Part shown: piece by piece, positions 1-38,324 of the stretch
How the letters are laid out: each line of letters starts with the position of its first letter
Numbering within the stretch: the stretch's first letter is position 1
Source: a virus
Virus record (IMG/VR): IMGVR_UViG_3300044618_000713
Location: 1 to 64,000 of that record
Length of the DNA stretch: 64,000 nt
Reading direction: 5' to 3' (one strand)
Made by a program: the position numbers and the translations under genes
The notes under the pieces: generated by a model
Databases searched by the model: none
The model's input: only the letters and a program-made list of their open reading frames with translations
Told to the model about the DNA's origin: nothing

Positions 1-210
1 ACACGGCGATTATTATCAAGTGTCTATGATGGCACAGGAACTGAAGGACGCCATGCGGCGCGGCAAGAAATGGAGAATACTAGACGATATGCAGCGCGAG
101 ACGCTGGAGATGATCGCCAGCAAGATTGGCCGCATCTTGTCAGGCAATCCGCACGAGTCCGATCACTGGCGTGACATCGCGGGCTACGCCACGCTGATCG
201 AGCGGTGGCT
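1..210 (+). repeat. Direct repeat, copy 1 (127 nt exact, similar to about nt 210)
   Basis: acacggcgat...caagatt is identical to 38075-38201; first mismatch is g128 vs a38202; homology ends at 210/38284. Confidence 0.97.
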
Positions 211-352
211 TACCTCTTGCACCGCTTCCGATGATGATCCCACTCGCCGCCACGGCGGATGCAATCCCGCCACGCCTGCTCCTGTTCGGGAGGCATCCGT
301 TTGGCCAATAACGCCAGAAGAAGAGGAAGAACGGGCCGTACAGCAGCCGTGA
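1..352 (+). CDS. DUF6378-like protein, 5'-truncated copy with read-through C-terminus
   Basis: SKIGRILSGNPHESDHWRDIAGYATL motif; N-terminus lies at 38043-38074 if phage A is circular. Confidence 0.7.
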   Translation, partial: HGDYYQVSMMAQELKDAMRRGKKWRILDDMQRETLEMIASKIGRILSGNPHESDHWRDIAGYATLIERWLTSCTASDDDPTRRHGGCNPATPAPVREASVWPITPEEEEERAVQQP

Positions 353-452
353 CTAGGCCGATCCAGAAGGACGGCCGTTGGGCAACGAGAAAGCCACCAG
401 CGCCAATGCCGATCAACAGCACAGCGACGGCGGCAATCTCAAGCCAGTTCAC
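210..452 (-). CDS. Lysis-cassette membrane protein (80 aa)
   Basis: Hydrophobic N-terminal segments, C-terminal CIRRGGEWDHHRKRC; homolog at 39496-39726. Confidence 0.75.
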   Translation of the reverse strand: MNWLEIAAVAVLLIGIGAGGFLVAQRPSFWIGLVTAAVRPVLPLLLALLAKRMPPEQEQAWRDCIRRGGEWDHHRKRCKR

Positions 453-610
453 TTCTTGGCCCAGATAGACCAGCCAGCGGCGAAGATGATGCCGAGCGCG
501 CCGATAATCTCGTTCATGGCGGTGGCGTCAATAACGCCGGTGCCGACAACGTAGCCGCCGCCAGCGGCCAGAACGGCGCGCACTACGCCCCAAACCATTT
601 CCTTCGTCAT
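449..610 (-). CDS. Putative holin (53 aa, two TM segments)
   Basis: MTKEMVWGVVRAVLAAGGGYVVG...WSIWAKK; ATG overlaps the endolysin stop; near-identical copy at 39723-39884. Confidence 0.7.
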   Translation of the reverse strand: MTKEMVWGVVRAVLAAGGGYVVGTGVIDATAMNEIIGALGIIFAAGWSIWAKK

Positions 611-1032
611 GTCTTCGCTCCTGTCTTGGTGCCGGGATACTGGACCCACGGCAGTTGAAAATGTGGCCCGTCCTTGAAACTTGTCCACGCCCCGCCCCAC
701 TCTAGCAGCACGCCTTCCTTCTTGGCTGCCACCTTCATGCGCTTGGCCAGCTTGTCGTACAGCGGCCAATCCCAGCGCACCGCGCCCTTGATCGTGCAGG
801 CCAGATCGACGGCGTGGGAGTAGCCGTTGGCGGCAGGGATGTGACGCGAGCGCAGCGTCTTGCTGGCGCCCTTGGCCTTGAGGATCTTCTGCTCCTCCAG
901 CGTGCGCACGCCGCAGGTGACGACGAAGCCCGTGTCGGCCTCGGCCCAGTCTTTAGCGCAGCGCAGCACGACGCGCACCAGGTCGGGATGGACGCCCTTG
1001 AGCTTGGCGAAGGACGCGCTGTTGAGCTTCAT
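607..1032 (-). CDS. Endolysin, M15-family L-Ala-D-Glu peptidase
   Basis: HPDL...RTLEEQ...SRH...HAVD...WGG.W...DGPHFQL motifs. Confidence 0.9.
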   Translation of the reverse strand: MKLNSASFAKLKGVHPDLVRVVLRCAKDWAEADTGFVVTCGVRTLEEQKILKAKGASKTLRSRHIPAANGYSHAVDLACTIKGAVRWDWPLYDKLAKRMKVAAKKEGVLLEWGGAWTSFKDGPHFQLPWVQYPGTKTGAKT

Positions 1033-1271
1033 TTGCGTAACGCCTCCTCGATGCTGTCAAGTTTCAACATGATGGCCCGCGTTGTCTCGCGGATCTCCTT
1101 GATCTCGCGGTCGTGCGCTGTGCGAGATGTTTCGGTCTGGGCTTGCAGAACCGCGATGGCCGTCTCATGCGCCTGTTGCTGGCGGTAGATAACCCAGACA
1201 AACGCGGCCACTGGCGCGATGATCCATTGCATGATGGCACCGAGCACTTTGAATGTTTGATCGTCAAGCAC
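1029..1271 (-). CDS. Small membrane-anchored coiled-coil protein of the lysis cassette
   Basis: One N-terminal TM plus heptad C-terminus; near-identical copy at 40303-40545. Confidence 0.7.
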   Translation of the reverse strand: MLDDQTFKVLGAIMQWIIAPVAAFVWVIYRQQQAHETAIAVLQAQTETSRTAHDREIKEIRETTRAIMLKLDSIEEALRK

Positions 1272-1277
1272 GGCACG

Positions 1278-2960: not shown

Positions 2961-2961
2961 G

Positions 2962-4077
2962 TCAGTTCCTCTTGACAGTTACACCCGGCGGCAGCGATGA
3001 ACGGCCACCTGTAGCGGTTTCTTCTTCGATGCGCCGACGTCGCGCTTTCGTCTGTTCTACGATACCTGCGGACGGTGCGTCGCCGCGGTAACTGTACGTT
3101 TCGTCAAAAGCAGACTGCACGTTACCCTGCGCTGTTTTAAGATCAATCAGATACTGACGCAAAGCCTCGCGAAAGTCGTCGTAATCTTGCGCCTGCGAGA
3201 ACGCAGCAACGCTTTTCTCCAGTTTTGCGCCTTCTTGGTTGGACACGTTGCCGAGAGCGCCGCCGGTAGGCGAAGCATCGCGCATTGCCTGCAAAGCGGA
3301 AAAACCTGCGCCGGACATGATCTTGTCGAGAAGCGCCTGCGCCCGCGTCGCGTCCTTGAACACGTTGGGAGTGTACGCCCCAAGATACCCCGTAATGGCT
3401 TTAAGCCCAACATCGTCAGTCAGCAGTTTTTCAACGTCCTGAATGTCTTGGTCAAGGCTTGTAACTGAGCTTTGAAGGGCGCGCGTAGCCTGCGGGTAAG
3501 CCTGGTCCAACTTAAGTTTGACCTTTGGGTCCATTGCAGGTTCAGCCATCTCGTCGGGCGGCTGTTCCGTGCTGATAGGTGCTGTTTTAGCCGCTGCGGC
3601 CTGTTTGCGCTGTTCAATCTCAAGCTTGCGCAATTCAAGGTTTTGGTTCTGAATGTCGGCGTTGATACGCTGAATTTCCGTCGGGATGCGGTCGAGCAGC
3701 GTGCGGCCTGCGTCGCTGCCCGCGAGCGATGCCTCCAGCGCCGACAGGCGCAGGTCGTCGGACGGCATGGCCATCAGCTTGTCGATCTGCCCCTTAACAC
3801 CCGGCTGGATTTCGGGCGGCAAGAGGTTGTACGCCGCCGTGATGGACTCCTTGGTGCCGCCGCCCTTGAACGCGGTGGCGTAGGCAGGCGCCAGCGCGTC
3901 CACCAGCGCCGCTGCCTGCTCCTTCTGAGCCGCCTGCGCCTGCGCGGCGCGCTGCTGCTCAATGGCGTAGATGTTCTCCATGCCCGCCGTGCGCGTCTGC
4001 ATCATGGCGTTCACGTCCGGCAGGCGCGGCTGCGCCATCTGGTTGCCAGAGAGGATGATGTTCGGGTTGATAGGCAT
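2962..4077 (-). CDS. Putative DNA ejection protein
   Basis: Gln/Ala-rich with GGALGNVSNQEG motif; position between gp7-like and large ejection gene. Confidence 0.6.
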   Translation of the reverse strand: MPINPNIILSGNQMAQPRLPDVNAMMQTRTAGMENIYAIEQQRAAQAQAAQKEQAAALVDALAPAYATAFKGGGTKESITAAYNLLPPEIQPGVKGQIDKLMAMPSDDLRLSALEASLAGSDAGRTLLDRIPTEIQRINADIQNQNLELRKLEIEQRKQAAAAKTAPISTEQPPDEMAEPAMDPKVKLKLDQAYPQATRALQSSVTSLDQDIQDVEKLLTDDVGLKAITGYLGAYTPNVFKDATRAQALLDKIMSGAGFSALQAMRDASPTGGALGNVSNQEGAKLEKSVAAFSQAQDYDDFREALRQYLIDLKTAQGNVQSAFDETYSYRGDAPSAGIVEQTKARRRRIEEETATGGRSSLPPGVTVKRN

Positions 4078-5243: not shown

Positions 5244-5578
5244 TACGTCACCTCGCGGCCGGACACGCGGATGTTGATGGCTGACGCCGTTCCAGCGATG
5301 GTCGAGATGAACCCGCTGATGGCCAGCACATGCCCGACCAGTTCGGGAAAAGTGTACGTTTCGGACGGCTGCAATGTCTTGGTCTTGACGATCAAGTTGC
5401 TATTGCCTGCCGTATCAGCCGCTGTCACCAAGTTGACGCTGATTGTCGCCGCCGCCGCCGAATAGTTGGTCGCCGTGAACTTGTCGATGATAGCTGTAAC
5501 CCCTACCGCCGTGTACTGCGTGGTCTGGGTGTTTTCGGCTGTTTTGGCCGGGACAAGAACTTTAACCGTTACGGTCAT
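5243..5578 (-). CDS. Small beta-rich virion protein
   Basis: 111 aa, Thr/Val-rich, coupled stops and starts in the tail operon. Confidence 0.65.
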   Translation of the reverse strand: MTVTVKVLVPAKTAENTQTTQYTAVGVTAIIDKFTATNYSAAAATISVNLVTAADTAGNSNLIVKTKTLQPSETYTFPELVGHVLAISGFISTIAGTASAINIRVSGREVT

Positions 5579-6453
5579 GTTGCACCTCTGGAACTGATGT
5601 TGTCGGTAACCGTCAGTATGATTGACGGAATGGCAGGATGGACAGCGGTCGCTGGGTCACTAAACAACGACGCCGCCGTATCGGACACTTCCCACATAAG
5701 CTCAAAATAATCGCCTGCGTTCATGTCAAGCAAGAAGTTCCACGCTGCGACCGCTTCGGCGTTGTTGCCTTGGAGACGCAACGTCGTGGCTGAATTTGCC
5801 ACATCCGTACCGTTCTTGCGCAGCCAAACCCAGACGTTATGCGTGCCGCCCGCTGTGTTAACAAACTGTGCTGAGAACTGGATGTTGTAGACGTTGTGCG
5901 TGTCCACGTACACCCGCGACGTTGGCGTCCCGATATACACGCCTTGGGTAATGTCGGTCGAGTTGAACGTCATGGCGTAAGCAGTGTTGATTGCCGCTGC
6001 TGTCTGGTCGGTCGTGTCGTAGAACGATCCATACCGCAGTCGAGGCAACTGCGGCGTGTAGGCGGGGGCTACTTCCAGCGCCTGAATGCTGGATTGCAGA
6101 TTGGTTGGATCAAACGCCGCCTGCTGCGACGCTTCCAGCGCCTGAATGCTGGATTGCAGATTGGTTGGATCAAACGCCGCCTGCTGCGACGCTTCCAGCG
6201 CCTGCAACGCCGTGAGGATCGGCCCGAGATCGGACGGCAGGATACCTGACGAGATCTGCGCTGCCGACAGAATAGCGTTAAGATCTATTGCTTCGGCGGG
6301 CGGTCCTTTTTGGACGTCATCTAAAGAAACAAGGCTGTTGCCCGTCTGGTTAAACAGGCTGAGTAAGAACAAGTACCATTCGCGCGCAATCAGCCCAGTT
6401 TCCGGGTTTGTCAGCGGCACGCGCGGCGGGGTAATATTGGTGTTGTTAGGCAT
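5575..6453 (-). CDS. Tail needle-like protein (gp26 position) with C-terminal beta knob
   Basis: Follows the gp10-like gene; N-terminal PPRVPL..PETG...REWY.FL, coiled-coil repeats, beta-rich C-terminus. Confidence 0.6.
   Translation of the reverse strand: MPNNTNITPPRVPLTNPETGLIAREWYLFLLSLFNQTGNSLVSLDDVQKGPPAEAIDLNAILSAAQISSGILPSDLGPILTALQALEASQQAAFDPTNLQSSIQALEASQQAAFDPTNLQSSIQALEVAPAYTPQLPRLRYGSFYDTTDQTAAAINTAYAMTFNSTDITQGVYIGTPTSRVYVDTHNVYNIQFSAQFVNTAGGTHNVWVWLRKNGTDVANSATTLRLQGNNAEAVAAWNFLLDMNAGDYFELMWEVSDTAASLFSDPATAVHPAIPSIILTVTDNISSRGAT
6072..6204. repeat. 60-bp perfect tandem repeat (about 2.2 copies)
   Basis: cttccagcgcctgaatgctggattgcagattggttggatcaaacgccgcctgctgcgacg repeated; encodes ASQQAAFDPTNLQSSIQALE. 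Confidence 0.95.
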
Positions 6454-8077
6454 TGGTGCCGCTTATCTGCAACTCGGCACCCATAATAGCAATCTTGACT
6501 GGGTCGGTGCCGCTAACCTCGTACACGCGGTCGCGGATTTTTTCAGTCATGCCAAGGCGGCGCCAGATCGTGCGGTAGCCGTACTGGCCGATCTTGCCCA
6601 TTGAACGCCAGTGCTCGTTCGACCAAGTATGGCCGCCGTCGTCAGACCAACGCAGCATGACTTCTGGATCGTATCCTGGCGCGGCAGTATACGCAGTTGT
6701 CGTCAAGTACATCGGCGGAACAAACGGAATAGGATAGTCTGGCGTATCGACTAAGGTTTCAAATTCGTCGCCAGCTTCCGTAGTGAGCGTATCTCCGCTT
6801 TCCGTCACAATGTCGTTTTGTACATATTCAGCAATAAGAAGGTCGCCGTTCTCCGCGGCCAGATCTTCGGCATCATACGCCGGGTATTGTTCCAACCCGA
6901 CGCCCGTTTCGCAATCAAGCTGCAATGCGTGCTGCGCCGTGCGTCGCAACGTGTTTTCGCCAGTTGGCAGCGCCCGCCACGACCGCAGCCAACGCTGCGT
7001 TCCGCCGTTATAGGCGTATGTGTTTTGGTCAACAGTGTAGATATTGCCGTTTTCATAGTCGCCCAGCAGGTTTTTGCCGTTGAAAAAAACCTGCGTTTGT
7101 CCGAGATACCGCGTCCAGCTATCATCCCAACCCGCACGTTCATGCCATGCGCCGGTCGCGGCGTCATAAACCCATGTCTTTCCAACAGACGGAAACACAA
7201 GCACATAGAATGAATGGCCATCCTGCTGGTATGTGTACCCGATGGCGTTCGACAGATCGCCATACTGTTGAATTTGCCATTCGACAGCGTGCGTAGAAAC
7301 GCGCTGACCTTGGTAACCATTGGCCACATAGACAATGCCTTGGCCGCGCGGATCTTTACCCAACCAGTAAATTTGGTTGTTCATCTTGGCAACGCTGTAG
7401 CGCGCAGCGCAGCCCAGTTCGTTAAACGCACCTTGAATGCGGGCCAACGGAAAGTCTGGCAACCCGGCGTTATACCAGACTTCGGTCGAGCTGTTGCCAA
7501 ACAACCAGACTTCGCGATGGTCTACAATCATGCTGACGATGTTGTCAGGATCGCCTTCAGCACTAGCAAAATCCAACGGGTCAATGCTGGTGCCGTCCAA
7601 TAAGGCGGTCACCCACATACGCTGGCTGTTTGGCTGAATGAAAACAAAGTAGCCGTCAAGATAGTCAACGACCGAAGCACCAGGGAAGTCCTGATCGGCG
7701 ATCTGCCCAAAGACGCCGGTAAGGGTGTTGTAGATGTAACCCTTTGGGCTGGCCGCAATCATGATCTGCGTGCCGTTATCGGCCATGCTGACCAGCCCCG
7801 TGCCATCAACAGTGCCTTTGGCTGTTGCAACCCAAGCACTGTTCACTTGGTAGAAGGTATTTGCCGACACGACATAAAGATAGCCGTTGTGCTCCCAAAG
7901 CCCGCGAATTGGGCCGCTGCCGACAACAGTTTGCAGCACCAAGCCGGGGCACCGTTGAAGAAACGCAGGTTGTTTACCGCCTTCCGGCACAACTTCAGGA
8001 AACAAGTTCACCATGCGGCTGTCCGCAGCGTTTACGCTGCGGGCCGTGTACGCTGAACCAAGGATCGGCGTCTGCAT
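6446..8077 (-). CDS. P22 gp10-like tail hub / packaged-DNA stabilisation protein
   Basis: MVNLFPE, DFASAEGDPD, STEVWYN and MLRWSDDGGHTWS motifs. Confidence 0.85.
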   Translation of the reverse strand: MQTPILGSAYTARSVNAADSRMVNLFPEVVPEGGKQPAFLQRCPGLVLQTVVGSGPIRGLWEHNGYLYVVSANTFYQVNSAWVATAKGTVDGTGLVSMADNGTQIMIAASPKGYIYNTLTGVFGQIADQDFPGASVVDYLDGYFVFIQPNSQRMWVTALLDGTSIDPLDFASAEGDPDNIVSMIVDHREVWLFGNSSTEVWYNAGLPDFPLARIQGAFNELGCAARYSVAKMNNQIYWLGKDPRGQGIVYVANGYQGQRVSTHAVEWQIQQYGDLSNAIGYTYQQDGHSFYVLVFPSVGKTWVYDAATGAWHERAGWDDSWTRYLGQTQVFFNGKNLLGDYENGNIYTVDQNTYAYNGGTQRWLRSWRALPTGENTLRRTAQHALQLDCETGVGLEQYPAYDAEDLAAENGDLLIAEYVQNDIVTESGDTLTTEAGDEFETLVDTPDYPIPFVPPMYLTTTAYTAAPGYDPEVMLRWSDDGGHTWSNEHWRSMGKIGQYGYRTIWRRLGMTEKIRDRVYEVSGTDPVKIAIMGAELQISGTNA

Positions 8078-10837: not shown

Positions 10838-12046
10838 TTAGCCCCAGATGCGCGCGGCCATCTGCGGACGGATGGTCGAGAAGCCGTACAGCACGTCGAT
10901 ACGGCAGGGGAGCCGGTCGTTGTTGATGTCGTACTGGCGCACGATACGCATCGAGATGCCGTTGTGAACCTGGCGGGAAGCCATATCCACACCGCTCGGC
11001 ATGAGAAGGTCAGCCGTGGCGAAGGAGATGGCGTCCTTGTGGTACACAAGGTTCTGCGGGTACTGGGTCGAAGCCGCGCCGATGAAGGTGACGGCCTTGC
11101 CGGTGATCGTCAGGGTGTTGACGGTCGCCAGAGCGTTGGACGGCGAGTAGAGCGCCGGGGACACAGCAAGCGTTACCGCGCCGCCAGACGTCGATGTGTT
11201 GGCGGCAGTCACGACGAACTGCTGAAGCGAACCCGTGCTTTCGCGGGTCTGCGGGTTGACGGAGAAGCAGTCAGCCACCGTGAACACGTCACCAACGGTG
11301 AAGGTCAGGGCGTTGCCAGCAGACGCGAGCGTGATGGTCGAAGCGCCTTCCGTAGCGTTGCCGTTGACGGTCGCGCCCGTGGCAGTACGCGAACCAGTCG
11401 TGTGCTGCTTGATGGACTGCGACATGTTGATCTCCTCGTAGCCGAGGATACCCTCACCCATCATGCCGTTCTTGAACTGGCGGGAGATCGTGTCAACGGG
11501 GTTGAAGAGACCCTTCATGCCTTCAACCAGACCCGCGTTGGCCGCCGGGTTCACCGTGGCGTAGCGGCTCGGCATCATGGCAGCGTACTCGTTCAGCTTC
11601 TGCTGGGCCTGAAGCAGGACAAGCGAAGTGGCCGGGGTCGTGCCGGGGGTGCCGACGGACGAGAAGATCGACTTGTAAGCATTGGCGACGTCAGCGTCGA
11701 TGGAGGACGCAAGCTGCGAGATACGCGGCTTGAGCACACGGTCGGCGAAGTCGTCGAGCTGCATGGTCAGTTCGGCCGACGTGAAGTTGACGCCAATGTG
11801 CTTCTGGCTGGAGACGGTGAGCGAGGTGTGCTGCTCGTTGTCGTCCTGCACCTGAAGGGCAGCACCGTCGGTCACCAGCGCACGGTCGGGCAGACGGATG
11901 CGGAGGGTAGAACCGATCTTGGCACCTTCGACAGCGAAGCTGTCGTCGTAGGCGCGGTTGACGTTGCGGGTGATCACCAGGTTGTTCTCAAGGATTTCGA
12001 GAGCCTTCCGGGTGATCATGTCGATAGTAAGAATGCTGTTAGCCAT
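10838..12046 (-). CDS. Major capsid protein, P22 gp5-like coat
   Basis: MANSILTIDMITRKALEILENNL...CRIDVLYGF. Confidence 0.92.
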   Translation of the reverse strand: MANSILTIDMITRKALEILENNLVITRNVNRAYDDSFAVEGAKIGSTLRIRLPDRALVTDGAALQVQDDNEQHTSLTVSSQKHIGVNFTSAELTMQLDDFADRVLKPRISQLASSIDADVANAYKSIFSSVGTPGTTPATSLVLLQAQQKLNEYAAMMPSRYATVNPAANAGLVEGMKGLFNPVDTISRQFKNGMMGEGILGYEEINMSQSIKQHTTGSRTATGATVNGNATEGASTITLASAGNALTFTVGDVFTVADCFSVNPQTRESTGSLQQFVVTAANTSTSGGAVTLAVSPALYSPSNALATVNTLTITGKAVTFIGAASTQYPQNLVYHKDAISFATADLLMPSGVDMASRQVHNGISMRIVRQYDINNDRLPCRIDVLYGFSTIRPQMAARIWG

Positions 12047-25924: not shown

Positions 25925-25934
25925 GAGGGAAACA

Positions 25935-26246: not shown

Positions 26247-26422
26247 CGCGGCCACTATACGACGCCCGCGGCCTAGCGCCGGACCCGGAGCGGCTCGCGG
26301 AGGCGCACCATGTGCGCCGCGACCCGGACACTGACGAAGTATCGTGGCCACCGTCGCGCATGGCGGCGGTACTGCGTGAACTCAAACTTATAGATGAAAA
26401 GGAACTCGACCGTGACACATGA
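26243..26422 (+). CDS. Hypothetical protein (59 aa)
   Basis: ATGA coupling to the upstream gene. Confidence 0.5.
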   Translation: MTRPLYDARGLAPDPERLAEAHHVRRDPDTDEVSWPPSRMAAVLRELKLIDEKELDRDT

Positions 26423-27351: not shown

Positions 27352-27407
27352 TCATGCTGCTGGCCTTGGTGCTGGCGGCCCTTGTGGCCGCCTGGCTCGA
27401 CCTCTAG
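27348..27407 (+). CDS. 19-aa hydrophobic peptide
   Basis: MIMLLALVLAALVAAWLDL; ATGA-coupled; stop shares a CTAG with the primase stop. Confidence 0.35.
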   Translation: MIMLLALVLAALVAAWLDL

Positions 27408-29710: not shown

Positions 29711-29730
29711 TGTTTCCTCGTTCTTATGGG

Positions 29731-29922
29731 TCAGTCGTCGTTTTTGAGCGGCAGTACAGAGTACCTTGTTGGCTCGTGGGTAACAAAATCCCACGATATT
29801 GTGCGGCTGCTGGCGGGCCAGGCATTCAAGGCCGCCGCAATCGCCCCGCCTACGTCGCCAATCGCGGCGTACCCACTCGCGGCTTCGATTGCTTCGTCGG
29901 GTATCTGGTCACGTTTGATCAC
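29731..29922 (-). CDS. Hypothetical protein (QIPDE...NAWP family)
   Basis: GAGG RBS; paralogous to 37363-37590 and 37577-37786. Confidence 0.6.
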   Translation of the reverse strand: MIKRDQIPDEAIEAASGYAAIGDVGGAIAAALNAWPASSRTISWDFVTHEPTRYSVLPLKNDD

Positions 29923-29925
29923 GGG

Positions 29926-30279
29926 TCACCTCAAGGTTCTGAAAGCAATGGCGTTGTGGACCGTTCGCACGCGGGTCCGCACCCTGTTTCCGTCGTTTCC
30001 GCTTTTCACGAGCCAGCCCTTGGCCGTCCTGCCGACGATCACGCCGACGTGATTGCGCCAGACGACGATGGCGCCGATCCGCGCCCGCGTCGGGCGTCCG
30101 ACCTTGGCCCAGTTCCGCGCGCGCCACAGATCCTTGCGATGCGGCATTCCGAAATAATGCGCCAGATAGCAGCCGCACCAACGTGACGGGCAGCCCCTCG
30201 GCTGACCGGGCTCGCGGGCCTCGACGCTGGCGGTAGAGATCAGCAGCGCGGCTAGCGCAGCGAACAAGACATTCTTCAT
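29926..30279 (-). CDS. Secreted CHAP/NlpC-like cysteine hydrolase
   Basis: Signal peptide; WCGC...ARNW...G.IVVW..HVGVI...SGN. Confidence 0.7.
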   Translation of the reverse strand: MKNVLFAALAALLISTASVEAREPGQPRGCPSRWCGCYLAHYFGMPHRKDLWRARNWAKVGRPTRARIGAIVVWRNHVGVIVGRTAKGWLVKSGNDGNRVRTRVRTVHNAIAFRTLR

Positions 30280-30287
30280 GGTTCACC

Positions 30288-32270
30288 TCACTTGCCGTAC
30301 CGTTGCATCACCTTGCCGCTGGCACCCAATGGTAGCCCCTCGGCCCACGCGGGAGGGGTGATCATAACAGCCTGCATCGCGGCTGCCAATTCTTCTGATT
30401 TTTCTGTATCAACCTCAGCTACAATTTCGTCGTGGACGTGCAGCACGACCTCGACGCCCGCGGCGTCCAGACCGCGCAGCGCCTCGCGCAGGATGTCGTT
30501 GGCGGTGGCCTGCACGATGTTCTCGCAGGCGAGCCCGCGCCAGAGCCGCGCCCGTGGCCACTCCTTGGCGTCTGCCGCAGGCTTCCACGACGCCTTGGCG
30601 TAGGACACGCCGTCCTCCTCGAACCGCGCGTAGGGGTAGCACAGCACGCGGCCCGACGGCAGCGCGTACCAAAGGTGGTCGCCTTGCTTCATGTACTGCA
30701 CGCGGCCCGCCTTGAACACCTCGCCGGGGTTGCGGATGGCGCGGGTATACGCCTGCTCCAGATCGGCCCAGAACGGCACGGCCCACGGGTTGGCGCGGCG
30801 CCACAGATCGACCGTGCGCCTCGCCTCGCTCTCGGGCATGTGGACGCCGTAGACGCGGCCCATGGCACTGAACGCACCCACGCCGCCGCCGAACCCGCAG
30901 GCCAGCACGGCCACCTTGCCAAGCTGCCGCTGCTCGTCAGTGACGGCCGTCTCCTCGACGTTGAACATGCGCGCGGCGACGGCAACGTAGATGTCGCGGC
31001 CCTCGCGGAACACGTCCAGCGTCTCCTCGCCGTCCATCGACAGCCACGGCGTGACGCGGGCCTCGATCTGGGCATAGTCGAACACGGCGAAGACCTTGCC
31101 CTCGGCCGGGATCAACGCCGGACGCAGCATCGACTTCAGCACGTCGGTGACGCGCTTGCCGAACTCGGGCACGATCTGGTGCCCGCGCACGAGCGCCTGG
31201 CGGGCTAGTTCAGGCTCTTTGGCACATTTTCGGGGGAAGTTGTGGACTTGGAGACCATAACTTGATGCGCGGCCCGTAGCGCTTCCCCCAGCAAACACAA
31301 ACGCACCCCGGACGCGACTGTCGAGATCATCTGAGAGCGATGCAGCTCGCTCAAACTTCGCCACCGACGATGCCCAGAGATCGTCCGCGCACTGCACCAC
31401 TTCAGCGACTTCCGCAGGGACTTCATCAGGGTTTTCCTCCGCAAGGGTTAATACGCTCGCGCGCACGGTCTTGTCCAAGCATCTGTGCGCCCGGTCATTT
31501 TTCATAAGCGTCATAAGTTTTCGGGCTTCAGGACCGACACGATCCCAAACCCAATCTTTCATTCGTACGCTGCGCACGCTCACAATTTCGCGCTGCGTTA
31601 TCTCGCAAACCAGATTTTGTATCTCAATCGTCTCGGCGGCGGCATACTTGACGGCTGCCTGCGCCAGCGGGCGGTCGAGGCGCACGCCGCGGTCGTTGAT
31701 GCGCTCGTTGACGTGGTAGTCGAGCAGCTCCTCGTCGGTCAGCCCGCGCATGGCCTTGGAGAAGGCCCGCATGGCGCGCACGTCCTGCTCGCAGTACTCG
31801 ATCATCTCCTGCATCAGCCCGGCGTCCTCGCGGAACGTGCCGTTGGCCTGCGGGATGGACAGCGCACGCACCAGTGCTGCGCCGCGGTGATCCTTGCGCA
31901 TCCCTGCGCCCGCGAAGCGGCCCACGTCCTCCAGAGAGCCTGGCGCGCAGTTGGCGCGGGCCTGCGTCGCGGTGCAGTAGAACTGCGTCAGCGCGGGCTC
32001 CGGCACCTTGAAATCAGGGCAGATCACATACCAGAACAACAGCCGCTCGAAGGCGGCGTTGTGCGCGCGGATCTGTACGCCGGAAAGAATTGCGGCCGAA
32101 ACTTTCTGTGGAAAGGGTTGCTCAGGCGTCCACGTCTGCACGTCCTCGTCATCGAAGGCGTAGGACATGCACAGCACCTCGGTGCTGGGGTCCTGCATAT
32201 AGTTGTAGACGCCACGCACCTTCAGATCGCAGCGGCTGCGGGTCTCGAAGTCAAGCCAGAGTATTGTCAT
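30288..32270 (-). CDS. polA: DNA polymerase family A (3'-5' exonuclease plus polymerase)
   Basis: LDFET, HNAAFE, YCEQDV exonuclease motifs; DYAQIEAR, RQLGKVAVLACGFG and VHDE polymerase motifs. Confidence 0.93.
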   Translation of the reverse strand: MTILWLDFETRSRCDLKVRGVYNYMQDPSTEVLCMSYAFDDEDVQTWTPEQPFPQKVSAAILSGVQIRAHNAAFERLLFWYVICPDFKVPEPALTQFYCTATQARANCAPGSLEDVGRFAGAGMRKDHRGAALVRALSIPQANGTFREDAGLMQEMIEYCEQDVRAMRAFSKAMRGLTDEELLDYHVNERINDRGVRLDRPLAQAAVKYAAAETIEIQNLVCEITQREIVSVRSVRMKDWVWDRVGPEARKLMTLMKNDRAHRCLDKTVRASVLTLAEENPDEVPAEVAEVVQCADDLWASSVAKFERAASLSDDLDSRVRGAFVFAGGSATGRASSYGLQVHNFPRKCAKEPELARQALVRGHQIVPEFGKRVTDVLKSMLRPALIPAEGKVFAVFDYAQIEARVTPWLSMDGEETLDVFREGRDIYVAVAARMFNVEETAVTDEQRQLGKVAVLACGFGGGVGAFSAMGRVYGVHMPESEARRTVDLWRRANPWAVPFWADLEQAYTRAIRNPGEVFKAGRVQYMKQGDHLWYALPSGRVLCYPYARFEEDGVSYAKASWKPAADAKEWPRARLWRGLACENIVQATANDILREALRGLDAAGVEVVLHVHDEIVAEVDTEKSEELAAAMQAVMITPPAWAEGLPLGASGKVMQRYGK

Positions 32271-32317
32271 GAGTGTGGTCGGGGCGCGGCCCCAGCAGAA
32301 ACCGCGCCCCTCGCCCG

Positions 32318-32956
32318 TTACGCGCTGCGACGGCGGCGGGTGGGGGCATCCACCGGCGCTTCGCTTGCGGGCGTCTCTTCCGTCTGGCCATCAAGGCTCA
32401 GCCAATTCACGACCTCGAACACGGGCGTGAAGATGCGCCCGTAGGACTTGTGAGTGTAGTGGTCCTTCTTCAGCCTCACCGCGGGCACCGGCTTGGCCTG
32501 ATCGGCCTCGACCTGCGCCGCAATGTCAAGGGCCAGCTTCTGCACGGCACGCTTGCCGCCGACGCTGGTGACGCTGTAGCGCACCTCAAGTCCCTCGTCC
32601 TCACCGGACATGCACTTGAGGCTCATGCCGACCTGAAGCTCCCAGCCGCGCTTGGCCTGCGGCGGCGCGGGGTCCAGTTCGGGCAGCGGCTCGTTGACCG
32701 GCACCATCTTCTCGGCCAGCACCTCGCCATCGCCCCAGGCGATGTAGCCGTGCACGAACGAGAACGGGTTGACGGCCCAGGTGCTGCCGTCCTCCACCTC
32801 GGTCTGGTCAGCGCCGAACACCCAGTGTCCGGTCTTGTCCATCTTGAGGATCGCCACACCATCGGCACCACCGACGCTCGCATCAAGCGAGCGCAGTGCC
32901 TGCGACAGGTTCTGGACGGAGGGAAGGTTGGCCTTCGCAAAGGTAATCGCGTTCAT
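32318..32956 (-). CDS. Putative single-stranded DNA-binding protein
   Basis: Between DUF2800 and polA; beta-rich core, Y.HKSYGRIFTP, acidic tail; AAAGGA RBS. Confidence 0.6.
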   Translation of the reverse strand: MNAITFAKANLPSVQNLSQALRSLDASVGGADGVAILKMDKTGHWVFGADQTEVEDGSTWAVNPFSFVHGYIAWGDGEVLAEKMVPVNEPLPELDPAPPQAKRGWELQVGMSLKCMSGEDEGLEVRYSVTSVGGKRAVQKLALDIAAQVEADQAKPVPAVRLKKDHYTHKSYGRIFTPVFEVVNWLSLDGQTEETPASEAPVDAPTRRRRSA

Positions 32957-32969
32957 CTTATTGTCCTTT

Positions 32970-34094
32970 CTAGACAAGTTTACCAAGGGCAGCAGCAAGA
33001 TGCTTGCCGACCTGCAACGACGCCGGGCGCGGATCATCCGCGGGTGCCAGCGTGTCACCCGATGAGACGGCGGTGATGAGCCCTTCCGGCATGGCGAGCT
33101 TGTGCTTCTTCAGCACCTTCTCGACCTGCGCCGGGCTCTTCAGCTCCGTCAATTCCTCAGCACTACAGCCTGCTTCGGCAAGGGCTGTCAATGCCGTCTG
33201 TTCGTTCACCCACTGGCGCATCGCCCGCTTGGGCACCAACTTCCAGCCGGGCAGCTCGACGCCCGCCTCCAGCAGTTCGACGGCCATCTCGCGGGCGTCC
33301 CTGATCCAGCCCTCCAGCAGGTCGATGCTGGCCAAGGCTTCCGAAAGCCGGAAGATGTTGACCGCCTTGATGTTCTCGCGCTTGGCGCGCTCGACGGCGC
33401 CGTTCACCAGCGGGCAGATCGACTTGGCAGCGCACCAGCGGCAGTGGTCGCCGGTCGCCAGCGGTGCGTCCGGCCGCTGCGCGGTCTTGACGGCCATGAT
33501 CAGCTCGGCCTCGAAGCGGCGCACCCGGTCGAGGTCCGTCACCCAGCGCCGCACATGCGGCGGCTGCACGATGATCACCTCGACCGTCTCGACGCCCTCG
33601 AAGGCCCAGCGTGTCGCCTCGGTGCGAAGTGCGGCAGCCGTGTAGAAGAGCGCCTGCGGGTTCTCTTCAGCCTCGACAGGCACGCCATCGCCAAACTTCC
33701 AGTCCAGCAGGATACCGCGATTGCCAATCCGGCCAACAAGATCGGCGGAACCAAAAACACCAGGGAGAGCGTCACCAAAGCCCACCACCTGCTCGACCGC
33801 GTATTCCATCTGTCCATCGGGGTCGATATCATTCAGCGCCTCCCATGCGGGCAGCAGCTTGCGCTCCAGCCGGTCCTCCGTCAACTCGATGCCGTTGTGC
33901 ATCGTGCCGAGGAAGTCGCGCGGGTCCTTATGCGTATCCAGAATGGTGGCGATGACGTTGTGCAGCAGCGTGCCCTCGTCGGCGTAGCTGCTGGACGGCT
34001 TGGGCGGCACCTGCTGCACAAGCGCGACGCTGCCGGGGCACGCGATGACGCGCTTGGCGGTCGAGCCGCCGACAATGTTAGAGTGTTGGGCCAT
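32970..34094 (-). CDS. Cas4-like PD-(D/E)XK exonuclease (DUF2800)
   Basis: HS...GSTAKR...CPGS; FGSAD...LDWKFG...NPQ..FY; GDHCRWC..K..CP. Confidence 0.88.
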   Translation of the reverse strand: MAQHSNIVGGSTAKRVIACPGSVALVQQVPPKPSSSYADEGTLLHNVIATILDTHKDPRDFLGTMHNGIELTEDRLERKLLPAWEALNDIDPDGQMEYAVEQVVGFGDALPGVFGSADLVGRIGNRGILLDWKFGDGVPVEAEENPQALFYTAAALRTEATRWAFEGVETVEVIIVQPPHVRRWVTDLDRVRRFEAELIMAVKTAQRPDAPLATGDHCRWCAAKSICPLVNGAVERAKRENIKAVNIFRLSEALASIDLLEGWIRDAREMAVELLEAGVELPGWKLVPKRAMRQWVNEQTALTALAEAGCSAEELTELKSPAQVEKVLKKHKLAMPEGLITAVSSGDTLAPADDPRPASLQVGKHLAAALGKLV

Positions 34095-34119
34095 ACTGTA
34101 TTCTCCTGTTGTTTCGTCA

Positions 34120-34170
34120 GTCGTTACAGATTTCTTGTTGACCTGTCAAGCATTGTTTGTTAGAGGCTGG
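34120..34170. promoter_or_regulatory. Overlapping divergent promoters
   Basis: TTGACCTGTCAA gives a -35 on each strand, between divergent DUF2800 and VRR-NUC genes. Confidence 0.5.
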
Positions 34171-34172
34171 TC

Positions 34173-34487
34173 ATGGTACGCGAAAGTGAAATCGAGAAGT
34201 ACTTCGTTTGGACGGTGCAGCGCATGGGCGGGACGGCCTACAAGTTCAAGTCGCCCAACCACCGCGGCGTGGCCGACCGCATCGCCTGTCTGCCGGACGG
34301 CTCGACGTGGTTTGTCGAGTTGAAGGCACCCGGCGGACGGCCATCCCCGCTCCAGAAACTCTTCGCGGCCCGCATGAAGGAACTCAGGCAGAACTACACG
34401 ATACTATGGTCAAAGACGGAGATAGACGAATGGCGGCATACTATAACGAGTTCGACCCCTACGCAGCCCAATGGCTGCGCAACCTGA
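34173..34487 (+). CDS. VRR-NUC nuclease
   Basis: RESEIEK...GG.AYKF.SP..RGV.DR......G..WFVELK..GG..S.LQ. Confidence 0.9.
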   Translation: MVRESEIEKYFVWTVQRMGGTAYKFKSPNHRGVADRIACLPDGSTWFVELKAPGGRPSPLQKLFAARMKELRQNYTILWSKTEIDEWRHTITSSTPTQPNGCAT

Positions 34488-35608
34488 TCGACAGTAAACT
34501 GATAGCGGAAGGTGATGTAGATGACAGATCAATTCGGGGCGTGGCTCCGGGCGACCTCAAGGGTTACACGCAGTGCCACTTCTTCGCCGGTGTCGGCGTC
34601 TGGTCCTACGCCCTCCGTCTCGCAAGATGGCCCGACGACCGGCCCGTCTGGACCGGCTCCTGCCCTTGCCAGCCATTCAGCGCCGCCGGAAAGGGAGCAG
34701 GATTTGCCGACGAGCGTCACCTCTGGCCGGAGTTTCATCGGCTCATCAGCGAGTGCCGCCCTCCAGTTGTCTTTGGAGAGCAGGTTGCGAGCAAGGACGG
34801 CCTCGGCTGGCTCGACACTGTACAGTCTGACATGGAAGCATCGGGCTACGCCATTGGGGCGGCAGATCTGTGCGCTGCGGGCATCGGCGCCCCGCACATC
34901 CGCCAGCGCCTCTGGTTTGTCGGAGAAAGGTTGGACGACACCGCAGGCGCACGACACCTCGGGGCGCTCGCTCGGGCAGAAGGAGAAGCACGGGACGAAG
35001 CACGGCTGCGCCTGTCTGGTGAGGGACGCAGATCTGGCGGGCTGGCCAACGCCGCGCTCGACGGACGGCGACAAGGGATCGAGGACGGCGGAAGGCTGCG
35101 AAGCGGAGATCGCGCGGAAGGGTCGGCTGGACGACCTGCCATCGACGGCGGTTTATCTGGCGGGCTGGCCGACACCATTGGCGGCGGACAGCCGGGGCCG
35201 GGCGGGGGCGGCGGCGCACAAGGACAGCGAACTTCCGAACGCGGTTTGCAAAGTGGATTGGTCGGGCTGGAACACGCCAGCAGCCTCGGACGGGAACGGG
35301 GGCAAGCGCCCGCACCCGGACACGACGATGACGGGCCAGCACCCGGAGGGCAGGAAGGTGAACATGGGGCTGGCCTCACAAGTTCACATCGGCTTCCTCA
35401 AGACGGAGCCCGCCCGACTAACGGCCACTGGCGAGATGCTGACTGGCTCCACTGCCGGGATGGCCGCTGGCGGCCAGTTGAACCCGGCACATTCCCGTTG
35501 GCTCATGGGGCTCCCGCCCGAGTGGGACGCCTGCGCGCCTACGGCAATGCCATCGTCCCGCAAGCAGCGGCAGAAGTGATAGGAGCCTACCTTGACGCTC
35601 GCCCTTAG
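34430..35608 (+). CDS. DNA C5-cytosine methyltransferase, catalytic (alpha) chain
   Basis: FFAGVG (I), GSCPCQPFS (IV), EQV (VI), PHIRQRLW (VIII), AYGNAIVP (X); no motif IX in this frame. Confidence 0.88.
   Translation: MAAYYNEFDPYAAQWLRNLIDSKLIAEGDVDDRSIRGVAPGDLKGYTQCHFFAGVGVWSYALRLARWPDDRPVWTGSCPCQPFSAAGKGAGFADERHLWPEFHRLISECRPPVVFGEQVASKDGLGWLDTVQSDMEASGYAIGAADLCAAGIGAPHIRQRLWFVGERLDDTAGARHLGALARAEGEARDEARLRLSGEGRRSGGLANAALDGRRQGIEDGGRLRSGDRAEGSAGRPAIDGGLSGGLADTIGGGQPGPGGGGGAQGQRTSERGLQSGLVGLEHASSLGRERGQAPAPGHDDDGPAPGGQEGEHGAGLTSSHRLPQDGARPTNGHWRDADWLHCRDGRWRPVEPGTFPLAHGAPARVGRLRAYGNAIVPQAAAEVIGAYLDARP
34521..35579 (+). CDS. Overlapping-frame beta chain of the C5-MTase (GWxTP repeats plus motif IX)
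   Basis: 352-codon open frame inside the MTase; four GWxTPxxxD repeats; QLNPAHSRWLMGLPPEW resembles motif IX. Confidence 0.7.
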   Translation: MTDQFGAWLRATSRVTRSATSSPVSASGPTPSVSQDGPTTGPSGPAPALASHSAPPEREQDLPTSVTSGRSFIGSSASAALQLSLESRLRARTASAGSTLYSLTWKHRATPLGRQICALRASAPRTSASASGLSEKGWTTPQAHDTSGRSLGQKEKHGTKHGCACLVRDADLAGWPTPRSTDGDKGSRTAEGCEAEIARKGRLDDLPSTAVYLAGWPTPLAADSRGRAGAAAHKDSELPNAVCKVDWSGWNTPAASDGNGGKRPHPDTTMTGQHPEGRKVNMGLASQVHIGFLKTEPARLTATGEMLTGSTAGMAAGGQLNPAHSRWLMGLPPEWDACAPTAMPSSRKQRQK

Positions 35609-36920
35609 ACCCTACCAGAACGACGCGGTGACGTTCCTCTACGAGCGTGACCGCGCCATGATCCTGGCCCCGGTGGGCGCGGGCAAGACCGCCATCACGC
35701 TCACCGCCATGCAAGAGTTCATGGTCAACGGCGTGGTCAAGCGGTGGCTGGTCGTCGCCCCCAAGCGGGTCTGCACCGACGTGTGGCCGGTCGAGGCCCC
35801 CAAGTGGGCGCCGGACCTGACCATCGCCGTGGCGGTCGGTAACGCCGCCAAGCGCCGCGCCGCCTTCGCCTCAGACGCCGCGGTGGTCGTGGTCAACTAC
35901 GACGTTCTCGACGTCGTGGGCGAGGACTTCGCGCGGTTTGACGGCATCGTGTTCGACGAACTGACCCGGCTCAAGAACCCGTCCGGCAAGCGGTTCAAGG
36001 CACTGCACAAGCACCTAGGGCGCTTCAACGTGCGGATCGGCCTCACCGGATCGTTCACGTCAAACGGGCTGGAGGATGTGTTCGGACAGTGCTTCGTGAT
36101 CGACCCGACGCTGCTGGGCCGCACCAAGGGGGCGTTCCTGCAGCAGTACTTCGTCTGCATCAACCGCGACTTTGGCGAGTGGATGCCACGGCGCGGTGCG
36201 CTGGAGCAGGTGATGACCCGCATCCGCCCGGCGACGTTCGTGCTGGAGCCCGGCGTCTACAAGGACAAGCTGCCGCCGTGCCATGTGGTCGAGATGCGCT
36301 GCGACATGCCCGACCGCGAGCCATACGAGAAGATGAAACGCGACTTCATGGTTAAGATGCAGGGCAAGGACATCACCGCCATGTCGGCGGCTGCGGTCAC
36401 GACCAAGCTTCAGCAGATGGCCAGCGGTTGGGTCTACCATACGGTGGACTGGAACGGGCCGTACCGTCTGCCGGTCTGGTTCTCGACGCACCGCTTCGAC
36501 CTGCTGGACGAGGTGCTGGAGGGCAACCAGCGGGCCAACACGCTGATCGTCTACAACTTCATCGAGGAGTTGGCGGAACTGAAGCGCCGCTATCCTGGGC
36601 GGCTGTGGACGCTGGACGACGGTGCCGACGTGATCGAGCGCTGGAACGCGGGCAAGATTCCGCTGCTGGCGGTCCACCCCAAGTCGGCAGGCCACGGCCT
36701 CAACCTGCAACACGGCGGCCATCACCTGGTGTTCCTGTCGCTGCCGTGGTCGCTGGAACTCTACGAGCAGGTCGTCGGCCGTCTGCACCGCAGCGGGCAG
36801 GAGCGCGACGTGTGGGTCTACGTCCTGCTGACGAACAAGACTATCGACGAGCGCATCTGGGCGGCCCTTGCCGACAAGCGCGCCATATCGGACATCGCAC
36901 TGGAGGAGTTGAAGGGATGA
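35592..36920 (+). CDS. SNF2-like SF2 helicase
   Basis: LRPYQ, GAGKT, FDE, LTGS, GHGLNLQ and GRLHRSGQ. Confidence 0.92.
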   Translation: MTLALRPYQNDAVTFLYERDRAMILAPVGAGKTAITLTAMQEFMVNGVVKRWLVVAPKRVCTDVWPVEAPKWAPDLTIAVAVGNAAKRRAAFASDAAVVVVNYDVLDVVGEDFARFDGIVFDELTRLKNPSGKRFKALHKHLGRFNVRIGLTGSFTSNGLEDVFGQCFVIDPTLLGRTKGAFLQQYFVCINRDFGEWMPRRGALEQVMTRIRPATFVLEPGVYKDKLPPCHVVEMRCDMPDREPYEKMKRDFMVKMQGKDITAMSAAAVTTKLQQMASGWVYHTVDWNGPYRLPVWFSTHRFDLLDEVLEGNQRANTLIVYNFIEELAELKRRYPGRLWTLDDGADVIERWNAGKIPLLAVHPKSAGHGLNLQHGGHHLVFLSLPWSLELYEQVVGRLHRSGQERDVWVYVLLTNKTIDERIWAALADKRAISDIALEELKG

Positions 36921-37117
36921 GTTGGAATTGGCACGATTTGAACGTGGTTCTGGCGATGCGTGACGAGCACCAGGTCAAGGCCATGCTGGACGAGGAGGTC
37001 GAGGTCCACAAGCGCCCGACCTACGCGGTGCGCATCCATCAGCGCTACACGACGCTGCGCGCGGTGCGCGAACGCAAGGAAATTCTCGCCGCACTCTCAG
37101 GAGACAAGCATGAGTGA
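36917..37117 (+). CDS. Hypothetical protein (66 aa)
   Basis: ATGA coupling; RIHQRYTTLRA.RER motif. Confidence 0.65.
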   Translation: MSWNWHDLNVVLAMRDEHQVKAMLDEEVEVHKRPTYAVRIHQRYTTLRAVRERKEILAALSGDKHE

Positions 37118-37370
37118 TATTGTAGAACGTCTGCTCCTACTTGCAGCCGTAGATAATTGCCAAGCATCTATTGAAGCCGCCGACACCATCACCCACCTCA
37201 CCGCAGAGAACGAGAGGCTGCGGGCGGCGCTGCGTGAGTGTGAGGCGGAGCTAAACGCCTACTACCGGATGGAATATCCGAGCGACCACCCATACAGCCA
37301 GAAGGAACTGGCGCAAGCTATGGCGTCTAATCCTGCCACCGTTGCACTGAAGGAGACAAACAATGATTGA
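37110..37370 (+). CDS. Hypothetical protein (MSDIVERL family)
   Basis: AGGAG RBS; EAADTI..L.AENERLRAAL coiled coil. Confidence 0.65.
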   Translation: MSDIVERLLLLAAVDNCQASIEAADTITHLTAENERLRAALRECEAELNAYYRMEYPSDHPYSQKELAQAMASNPATVALKETNND

Positions 37371-37590
37371 GCTTGAACAGATACCGGAGGAAGTCCTCCG
37401 CGCGTTGTGTGCCAGCATGGGCTGCGAGTGGGCCATGCAAGACAAAGAGGACCAGATAATCATTCGCCGTCACATCACCGCCGCTATCAATGCGTGGCCT
37501 AATATAGATAAGATTTATAGGTCTGAGGACGAGAAACTATTCACCATCATCCTCCCCCTGACACAGGAGAACAACAATGATCAAGGCTGA
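37363..37590 (+). CDS. Hypothetical protein (QIPEE...AAINAWP)
   Basis: AAGGAG RBS; paralog family. Confidence 0.65.
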   Translation: MIELEQIPEEVLRALCASMGCEWAMQDKEDQIIIRRHITAAINAWPNIDKIYRSEDEKLFTIILPLTQENNNDQG

Positions 37591-37786
37591 ACAGATACCG
37601 GATGAGGTGGTGGAGGCGGCTTTATGGGCTTACAACTACGCATTCAGAAATTGTTACACGACAGAAGAACAGGACATTGCTATCGCCATCGCCGCCGCTA
37701 TCAATGCGTGGCCGGGGATAGAAATCCACACTGACGGCACTGATGACTGGGTTGAACTTACCCTGCCGCAGGAGCCACGCACATGA
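37577..37786 (+). CDS. Hypothetical protein (QIPDE...AAINAWP)
   Basis: AGGAG RBS; tandem paralog. Confidence 0.65.
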   Translation: MIKAEQIPDEVVEAALWAYNYAFRNCYTTEEQDIAIAIAAAINAWPGIEIHTDGTDDWVELTLPQEPRT

Positions 37787-38046
37787 CCACCACACCAGAG
37801 CAGATAGAGGCTGCGCTTGCTGCGTTCGCGCTCGCATCTGGCCTTGGCATTTTCCCCAACGACGAAAAGGACGAGGAGTGGCGTGAGGACTTAGTTAACG
37901 GTATGCGCGCCGCCATCGACACCATGCGCCCCGTCATCCGTGCCGAGGCGCTGGAGGAAGCGGAGGATGTCGTTGGAGAAGTTGGTGATTGCGCGGAAGT
38001 TGGCGCTTATATAGCCGTTATCAGAGCGTTGAAGGAAAAGCCATGA
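37783..38046 (+). CDS. Hypothetical protein (87 aa)
   Basis: AGGAG RBS; ATGA couplings. Confidence 0.6.
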   Translation: MTTTPEQIEAALAAFALASGLGIFPNDEKDEEWREDLVNGMRAAIDTMRPVIRAEALEEAEDVVGEVGDCAEVGAYIAVIRALKEKP

Positions 38047-38324
38047 CTGACATTCTAGACGAACGCGAGAAGACACACGGCGATTATTATCAAGTGTCTA
38101 TGATGGCACAGGAACTGAAGGACGCCATGCGGCGCGGCAAGAAATGGAGAATACTAGACGATATGCAGCGCGAGACGCTGGAGATGATCGCCAGCAAGAT
38201 TAGCCGCATCTTGTCAGGTAATCCGCACGAGTCCGACCATTGGCGTGACATAGCTGGCTACGCCACGTTGATCGAGCGGTGGCTCACACCACCGGCTGAC
38301 CTCGAAACCAAGCCTGACCGTTGA
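38043..38324 (+). CDS. DUF6378-like protein (full length)
   Basis: MTDILDEREKTHGDY...DHWRDIAGYATL. Confidence 0.75.
   Translation: MTDILDEREKTHGDYYQVSMMAQELKDAMRRGKKWRILDDMQRETLEMIASKISRILSGNPHESDHWRDIAGYATLIERWLTPPADLETKPDR
38075..38284 (+). repeat. Direct repeat, copy 2
   Basis: Matches 1-210 as above. Confidence 0.97.

Follow-up and report, generated by a model that had tools for sequence, protein, structure and literature searches.

Exchange of modules among tailed phages, which leaves genomes mosaic, is established knowledge, with the lambdoid phages P22 and HK97 as the model. As regards assembled genomes, the authors of CheckV name chimeras of related viruses as an artefact that their tool does not yet detect, and the same paper states that end-repeat lengths of the kind described below equal the k of the assemblers (PMC8116208). 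Here we analysed a window of 64,000 nt, which comprises bases 1-64000 of the one-contig, 75,554-bp record IMGVR_UViG_3300044618_000713. In IMG/VR, it is classed as terminally repeated, with a completeness of 100%. In our view, the record is very probably an assembly artefact and not a dual-morphotype genome: two separate lake phages of ~38 kb each, denoted A and B, would have co-occurred and been merged into a figure-eight.

The initial annotation had placed the joint between the two phages at an exact 127-nt repeat, followed by scattered SNPs. Alignment of both junctions confirmed that bases 38075-38201 are an exact copy of bases 1-127; the copies then differ at position 128 (G; A at 38202) and at positions 145, 163, 166, 178, 181, 194 and 211, and from position 214 on, the two flanks are unrelated. 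A 127-nt exact match in 64 kb cannot have arisen by chance. The identity is thus exact, but the repeat is longer than 127 nt: when the two ends of the record are joined, the maximal exact match begins 19 nt before position 1, ends at position 127 and thus spans 146 nt; its copy at 38056-38201 corresponds to record bases 75453-75471 plus 1-127. What appeared as the left edge of a 127-nt repeat is therefore just the start of the contig, which cuts off 19 nt. The SNPs that bound the repeat are located at 38054/38055 (tail; TC, versus CA at record bases 75451/75452) and 38202 (head), with 148 nt between them. No other exact match of at least 127 nt exists between A and B: the second longest, at 37650 and 75081, has 94 nt.

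At its end (75472-75554), the record enters the repeat a third time, with a partial copy identical to bases 1-83. It thus consists of A (38,074 bp), B (37,397 bp) and 83 nt of this third copy, and A plus B form a closed figure-eight. This return into the repeat refines the initial description of a podovirus followed by a siphovirus in one contig, both of which are present. The first 127 nt of the contig are precisely the last 127-mer common to both phages before the first SNP at position 128, as would be expected at a branch of a k=127 de Bruijn graph; hence the “127”. Two relatives have terminal repeats of 127 nt (G002) and 123 nt (G008); such lengths are stated to equal k (PMC8116208). It should be noted that only 83 nt of the repeat are present at the contig end, compared to 108 or 127 nt expected for a clean k=127 edge or circle. 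A variant at repeat position 84 was considered as the cause of this end but found no support, as no relative varies there.

Unit A (1-38074) was delineated as a complete P22-like podovirus genome by gene content and by collinear A-only relatives. Its virion and packaging genes, identified by PHROG matches, occupy 1278-22837 on the minus strand and include TerL (20339-21865), a P22-type portal (16938-19088; phrog_156, E 1e-123), a tailspike (12943-15075; tailspike families), the major head protein (10838-12046; phrog_283), an Hc3/gp10-like protein (6446-8077; phrog_578, E 7e-131) and an ejection-type protein (2962-4077). Among 20 unit-A ORFs compared with PHROGs, none matched a tape measure. 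The replication genes (24909-37370), likewise assigned by PHROG matches, encode a RusA-like protein (24909-25520), a methyltransferase (34208-35608) and a helicase (35592-36920), as well as a primase (27404-29794), a DNA polymerase (30288-32270) and an exonuclease (32970-34094), the last three on the minus strand. The lysis cassette (607-1271, minus strand) consists of a Peptidase_M15_4 endolysin and an 80-aa ORF. By its portal, gp10/Hc3-like tail hub protein and tailspike, A is a P22-like podovirus. The A portal is 72% identical to GenBank records of 37.6-38.8 kb annotated “phage P22 like portal protein”; this level of identity is reached with uncultured records only, and the identity to portals of cultured phages is 37-40%.

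Unit B (38075-64000, continuing to record base 75471) was delineated by gene content and the collinear relative G002. PHROG matches place its virion and packaging genes at 41184-59688 on the minus strand: TerL (58279-59688; phrog_38), portal (56798-58270), protease (54857-55999), HK97-type major head protein (53599-54894; phrog_10), major tail protein (47264-47944), tape measure (44382-46301) and tail fibre (41184-42983). The set of HK97-type capsid, protease, major tail protein and tape measure matches phrog_10, phrog_80, phrog_1407 and phrog_9483, and by this gene content, B is an HK97-like siphovirus. Its lysis cassette (39884-40545, minus strand) is homologous to that of A, with ~78% DNA identity. 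B also carries replication genes of its own, and genes for a Sak4-like annealing protein and a Cas4-type exonuclease. B TerL is 60-64% identical to that of cultured phages of 34-46 kb. PHROG matches on each side thus bore out the proposal of two complete virion programmes, a podovirus and a siphovirus. Genes for terminase, portal, capsid, tail, lysis and replication are present separately in each half, and the GC content of the halves differs (60.1% in A versus 54.8% in B).

The repeat is located inside a DUF6378 gene (PF19905). A conserved patch of 245 nt (38043-38287, plus strand), spanning from the ATG to the end of the Pfam domain, is ~96% identical between the two junctions. The gene copy with the B-type 3' end (38043-38324, plus strand, 93 aa) scores 28.5 bits, above the PF19905 gathering cut-off of 27.1 bits. 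The copy with the A-type 3' end (2-352, plus strand) is an open frame from the first bases, has lost its 5' end at the contig start, and matches PF19905 at 107-205 with 23.3 bits. A hidden RNA or DNA element in the conserved patch was considered and rejected: the patch showed no RNA fold signal (fold z-score 0.06), and no Rfam family was found in the window. A second shared patch (37578-37774, plus strand) is 93% identical to record bases 75009-75205; it cannot merge a k=127 graph, because its exact core is only 94 nt.

Beyond the 245-nt patch, A and B share only lysis and virion-module cassettes that are ~78% identical, or nothing. Common to both are a virion-module ORF of 382/392 aa, small genes, the lysis genes and the 5' part of the DUF6378 gene. 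The shared patches show repeated module exchange between two phage types, and shared cassettes in a podovirus and a siphovirus from one lake point to a common host. The recent exchange between these phages that had been suggested is reasonable, given a patch with 96% identity amid such surroundings.

The initial annotation had proposed coverage on each side of the repeat as a check against a cointegrate, and we compared it in four lake-water runs (X1, X8, X10 and X11), taking as depth the mean word depth of Logan contigs (k=31) and not read counts; these contigs are interrupted at the repeat. In X1, the best-matching run, which may not be the source sample of the record, contigs identical to the window had depths of 41.4, 48 and 47.6x on the A side, and 12.7, 11.4, 12.9, 15.4 and 12.5x on the B side, a ratio of ~3.6. 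In X8, X10 and X11, the A side had 6-12x, and the B side was fragmentary, with 0-3x, contig gaps being no proof of absence; the A strains of these three runs do not have the 37.4-38.08 kb segment. By these contig word depths, the equal depth expected of a cointegrate was found in none of the four runs. We also considered a switch between A and B located upstream, at 37578-37774. In X1, however, the depth immediately to the left of the repeat (bin 37413-38079) is 43.9x and thus that of A, and the B-side contig with 12.7x starts at 38172, a k=31 branch point ahead of the SNP at 38202. Given this depth, and an exact core of only 94 nt in the upstream patch, a switch at the 146-nt repeat is the better reading.

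Relatives of each type are complete by themselves. G002 (37,263 bp; terminal repeat of 127 nt; CheckV completeness 100%) is collinear at ~90% with B only, and it closes from the replication end of B through DUF6378 to the lysis/tail end of B, as do G001 and G004. G008 (37,835 bp; terminal repeat of 123 nt) is an A-only relative, collinear with A, as are G005 and G003. The replication end of A is joined through DUF6378 to the lysis/tail end of A in G003, G005, L110, L111 and L112, of which L110 is 97.6% identical to 35532-37117. A scan of metagenome contigs with the repeat core yielded four matches: L110-L112 are clearly A-type, and L109 is short. Altogether, closure through DUF6378 was seen in five contigs of the A type and some fourteen of the B type. 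The B capsid gene, which the control, G002, has at 95%, was lacking from nine A-type genomes with lengths of 31-40.5 kb, two of which have terminal repeats. For both types, relatives that are cultured or deposited in GenBank have lengths of 34-46 kb, and none of the best 80 portal relatives is on a contig longer than 40.5 kb. The two-phage architecture was found in none of ~24 repeat-bearing contigs and at none of the 80 closest portal loci; likewise, no contig among the ~24 links A replication genes to B virion genes.

Near the joint itself, relatives cannot discriminate between the readings, because modules of small genes just left of DUF6378 shuffle among lineages, so that both local joints occur naturally: an A-end module followed by a B start in L001 and L005, and a B-end module followed by an A start in G003 and L112. 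The joint predicted for parental A was found in none of the ~24 contigs, which counts against the preferred reading. A nucleotide search of GenBank phages yielded no match to 37400-38900. A 61-letter pattern allowing both allele sets had no match in JGI metagenome contigs, and no near-identical sibling assembly was found there.

The preferred reading can be represented as follows. Both phages carry a DUF6378 gene with near-identical first 245 nt, of which 146 nt are exact, and in a k=127 de Bruijn graph, two circular or terminally redundant genomes would share one short edge at this repeat. The assembler may have started on the branching 127-mer, walked round A, passed through the shared edge into B, walked round B and come back into the repeat; downstream software would then have read the resulting 83-nt end repeat as a closed genome. 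The repeat geometry, the two complete gene sets, the unequal depth and the self-closing single-type relatives are direct observations; what we infer is the assembler with its k, why it left by the wrong exit, and that A and B closed into circles in the source sample. The walk round A with an exit into B through the shared patch, as initially proposed, is supported by the unequal depth, the single-type relatives, their closure through DUF6378 and the contig start on a 127-mer.

Paired reads normally resolve a repeat of 146 nt, and a wrong exit at such a repeat counts against a misassembly. This point favours a real 75.5-kb cointegrate, or B inserted in the DUF6378 gene of A by homologous recombination, as the main form of both genomes; so do the assembled contig itself, whose end repeat closes the record, and the natural occurrence of both local joints in relatives. 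Yet, such a molecule would have to be reconciled with the ~3.6-fold depth gap in the best run and with A almost without B in the three others, with an architecture seen in no repeat-bearing contig or portal relative, and with complete single-type genomes of 37-40 kb for both types. Furthermore, its duplicated functions show no decay, and the record contains no integrase or resolvase: neither PF00589 (tyrosine) nor PF00239 (serine) recombinases were found in the whole record, with positive controls. With T=7, heads of the P22 and HK97 types have room for ~40 kb, and a 75-kb genome would fit as a unit into neither of the two capsids. We regard a cointegrate as highly unlikely; the initial annotation had also ranked it below a chimera, and the unequal depth, the complete single-type relatives and the lack of a shared architecture agree with that ranking. 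Two prophages in tandem in one bacterial chromosome would account for two complete phage genomes side by side; nevertheless, no host DNA is present at either end, the record closes inside a phage gene, no integrase and no tRNA were found in it, and the depth is unequal, which makes this arrangement extremely improbable.

Depth is less decisive for molecules present in a minority. A mixture of free A (~31x) and an A-B cointegrate (~13x) would yield an identical depth step, and the data are compatible with cointegrates that account for as much as the whole depth of B. The phages could then be separate, with the assembler following minority A-B recombinants or heterodimers that were joined at the 146-nt patch in co-infected cells. 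Several shared cassettes suggest that the host is probably the same, and recombination functions are present on both sides (the Sak4-like annealing protein and the Cas4-type exonuclease in B; the exonuclease and the RusA-like protein in A). Conversely, an assembler artefact explains the contig without such molecules, and they would be neither packaged nor inherited. We consider this explanation very unlikely; that a podovirus-siphovirus heterodimer existed as a minority molecule in co-infected cells, as an intermediate of cross-morphotype module exchange, appears quite unlikely as well.

If the record is a figure-eight misassembly, its relevance is mainly one of data quality: the IMG/VR listing as a terminally repeated, 100% complete genome is probably wrong, and a public “complete” record is probably two genomes, with no dual-morphotype phage. 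Comparing record length to close complete relatives, or looking for two sets of terminase, portal and capsid genes, would catch such chimeras. There is a modest real residue, namely the near-identical 5' part of DUF6378, the 93% small-gene patch and the ~78% lysis/virion cassettes in A and B.

Compared to chimeric contigs that pass as closed genomes (PMC8116208, PMC8862349), the record is alike in that an end repeat was taken as closure. It differs from the known chimeras of related viruses in that A and B are not close relatives overall, are of different morphotypes and share a single 146-nt exact stretch, and from the viralFlye cases (PMC8862349), which come from chimeric long reads, in that it fits a short-read k=127 graph. 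With the same-genome concatemers flagged by CheckV, it has in common about twice the expected length and an internal repeat of the end sequence; its two units, however, are different genomes, and the k-mer frequency flag cannot fire, because almost all k-mers are unique in two differing units. Taken separately, each unit carries the hallmark virion genes of its group and is distant from the cultured members of it, A from those of the P22-like podoviruses and B, with a TerL identity of at most 64%, from those of the HK97-like siphoviruses. As in the lambdoid P22/HK97 mosaics, A and B share cassettes within otherwise unrelated genomes of equal gene order, with sharp transitions at gene or domain borders; the partners here are uncultured lake phages without integrases, and their mosaicism is nothing unusual in kind.

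The window opens a one-contig virus record of 75,554 bases in total, of which it holds the first 64,000, and two phages follow one another there: a P22-like podovirus (unit A, 1-38074) and an HK97-like siphovirus (unit B, from 38075 to record base 75471). We conclude that both phage genomes and the repeat joining them are real, and that their union in one molecule is very probably an assembly artefact. As the initial annotation had claimed, there are two self-contained virion programmes, and the replication and lysis genes are likewise separate. Unit A encodes a terminase large subunit, P22-type portal, Hc3/gp10-like protein, tailspike and major head protein, together with a primase, DNA polymerase, exonuclease, methyltransferase, helicase, RusA-like resolvase and M15 endolysin; unit B encodes a terminase, portal, protease, HK97-type major head protein, major tail protein, tape measure and tail fibre, a primase-helicase, Sak4-like annealing protein, Cas4-type exonuclease, methyltransferase, helicase and resolvase-like protein, and its own M15 endolysin. 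GC content is 60.1% in A vs 54.8% in B. No tyrosine or serine recombinase was found in the whole record, and no tRNA gene within the window. In the podovirus tail region, a 292-aa ORF (5575-6453, minus strand) contains a tandem 20-codon repeat, visible at 6072-6204 as a 73-nt exact direct repeat with a 60-nt offset.

Bases 1-127 equal 38075-38201 at every position; the copies then differ by SNPs at 128, 145, 163, 166, 178, 181, 194 and 211, with no relatedness from 214 onward. In a whole-record self-comparison, the 83 bases at the 3' end (75472-75554) were identical to bases 1-83, i.e., the contig ends 83 nt into the repeat; thus, the record consists of repeat, A (38,074 bp), repeat, B (37,397 bp) and partial repeat. 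After circular closure of the record, the exact match between the two junctions is 146 nt long: it starts 19 nt ahead of position 1 and ends at position 127. The 127-nt identity noted initially is exact but does not measure the repeat, because the match extends left of position 1; 127 is how far the first SNP lies from the contig start. Because this SNP lies directly past base 127, the contig starts on the last 127-mer common to both continuations, which is where an edge would be expected to start in a de Bruijn graph with k = 127; its end, 83 nt into the repeat, fits no clean edge of such a graph. There is no second exact match of at least 127 nt between the units, the next longest being 94 nt.

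The segment 33075-43074 was found in lake-water metagenomes, always as Logan contigs, and depth was compared over 28075-48074 in four runs (X1, X8, X10 and X11). It should be noted that these are depths of contig words, not of reads, and that the runs may differ from the source sample of the record. In X1, the run covering the segment best, word depth is 41.4, 48 and 47.6 for window-identical contigs on the A side and 43.9 for the bin directly left of the repeat; for B-side contigs, it is 12.7, 11.4, 12.9, 15.4 and 12.5, with the first contig (12.7) beginning at 38172, 30 nt ahead of the SNP at 38202. In X8, X10 and X11, the A side is at 6-12x and the fragmentary B side at 0-3x. Word depth is thus unequal across the repeat in all four runs, an imbalance that the initial annotation had regarded as refuting a cointegrate, i.e., true joining of A and B. 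The A strains of X8, X10 and X11 lack 37.4-38.08 kb: A is covered to ~37586 and the bin 37413-38079 is nearly empty, so that these strains have a different module before the DUF6378 gene, which carries the repeat. Contigs of X10 and X11 also skip 90 nt of the A primase gene (28873-28964) and 247 nt of the A helicase gene (35701-35949), length variants at the strain level that occur in other lake samples.

A 56-nt segment of the repeat is present without mismatch in 16 IMG/VR contigs and four JGI metagenome contigs. The B-type contig G002 (37,263 bp, 127-nt end repeat, CheckV 100% complete) is collinear with unit B only, at ~90%, and closes from the B replication end through DUF6378 to the B lysis/tail end; both flanks are likewise B-type in G001 (38,482 bp), in G004 and in some ten fragments. 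The corresponding A-to-A order occurs in five relatives (G003, G005, L110, L111 and L112), of which G005 is 31.6 kb long and L110 is 97.6% identical to 35532-37117. A complete A-type genome, G008 (37,835 bp, 123-nt end repeat), is without B content, and the B capsid gene is missing from nine A-type genomes (31-40.5 kb), with the control G002 carrying it at 95%. The end repeats of G002 and G008 coincide in length with assembler k values. The longest contig among the best 80 portal loci is 40.5 kb, GenBank relatives of either type have 34-46 kb, and in no relative are A replication genes joined to B virion genes.

The small genes immediately left of DUF6378 are reshuffled among lineages. The A-end module (37775-38042) precedes a B start in five B-type relatives (L001, L005, L006, L012 and L015), and the B-end module, also present in G002, precedes an A start in the A-type G003 and L112; therefore, both joints of the contig look natural over a few hundred bases. 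The joint predicted for the parental A was not found among the relatives, which settle the question at the whole-genome scale and not at the joint. At least three unrelated modules occupy this slot (37775-38042, record 75206-75439, and that of loci L002/L010), pairing freely with both backgrounds among the relatives.

Overall gene order is the same in A and B, with four patches in common: the first 245 nt of the DUF6378 gene (96%), a 197-nt stretch (93%), the lysis cassette (78%) and a 382/392-aa ORF within both virion modules (77.5%). The DUF6378 patch, with the highest similarity, is near-identical in contigs of many samples, though their flanks are 10-25% diverged, and has no RNA structure signal. 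This fits the recent exchange proposed initially, as repeated transfer of a small module among lineages with a probable common host, i.e., ordinary phage mosaicism. The 382/392-aa ORF (15145-16293 and 51274-52452, both minus strand) is also present in G002, has no match in PHROG or Pfam and has third-position GC below that of adjoining genes; it has the appearance of a portable accessory gene of the virion. In B, a specific 1.2-kb insertion (38288-39501) separates DUF6378 from the lysis cassette; it is found neither in A nor in the B-type relatives G001, L008 and L013. Its 318-aa ORF (38284-39240, minus strand) has a weak calcineurin-like phosphoesterase match (E 4e-4, just under the cut-off).

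A passage of the assembler from A into B via the shared patch is favoured by the depth step, the single-type relatives and the 127-mer start. A real 75.5-kb genome, i.e., the cointegrate or dual-morphotype alternative, is contradicted by the same step in depth, by an architecture present in no relative and by the missing recombinase; in addition, T=7 heads of both types hold roughly 40 kb. A mixture of free A and a cointegrate as deep as B would give an identical depth pattern; a minority of real A-B heterodimer molecules in co-infected cells is, in our judgment, a slim prospect. Tandem prophages were excluded, host flanks and integrase both being missing.

For the favoured artefact, two genomes with 146 exact bases in common would form, at k = 127, a figure-eight with a single short common edge. 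The path would start at the diverging vertex, run round A, cross the common edge into B, and return round B into the common stretch; the wrong exit may reflect an A start edge already used. Downstream software, finding an end repeat of at least 20 nt, would then call the record closed, and the IMG/VR entry does list direct terminal repeats and 100% completeness. According to the CheckV paper, lengths of end repeats cluster at the k of assemblers, and k-mer frequency catches same-genome concatemers, with chimeras of related viruses not yet detected (PMC8116208). In viralFlye, collinearity of one contig with two different complete genomes marks it as a potential chimera (PMC8862349).
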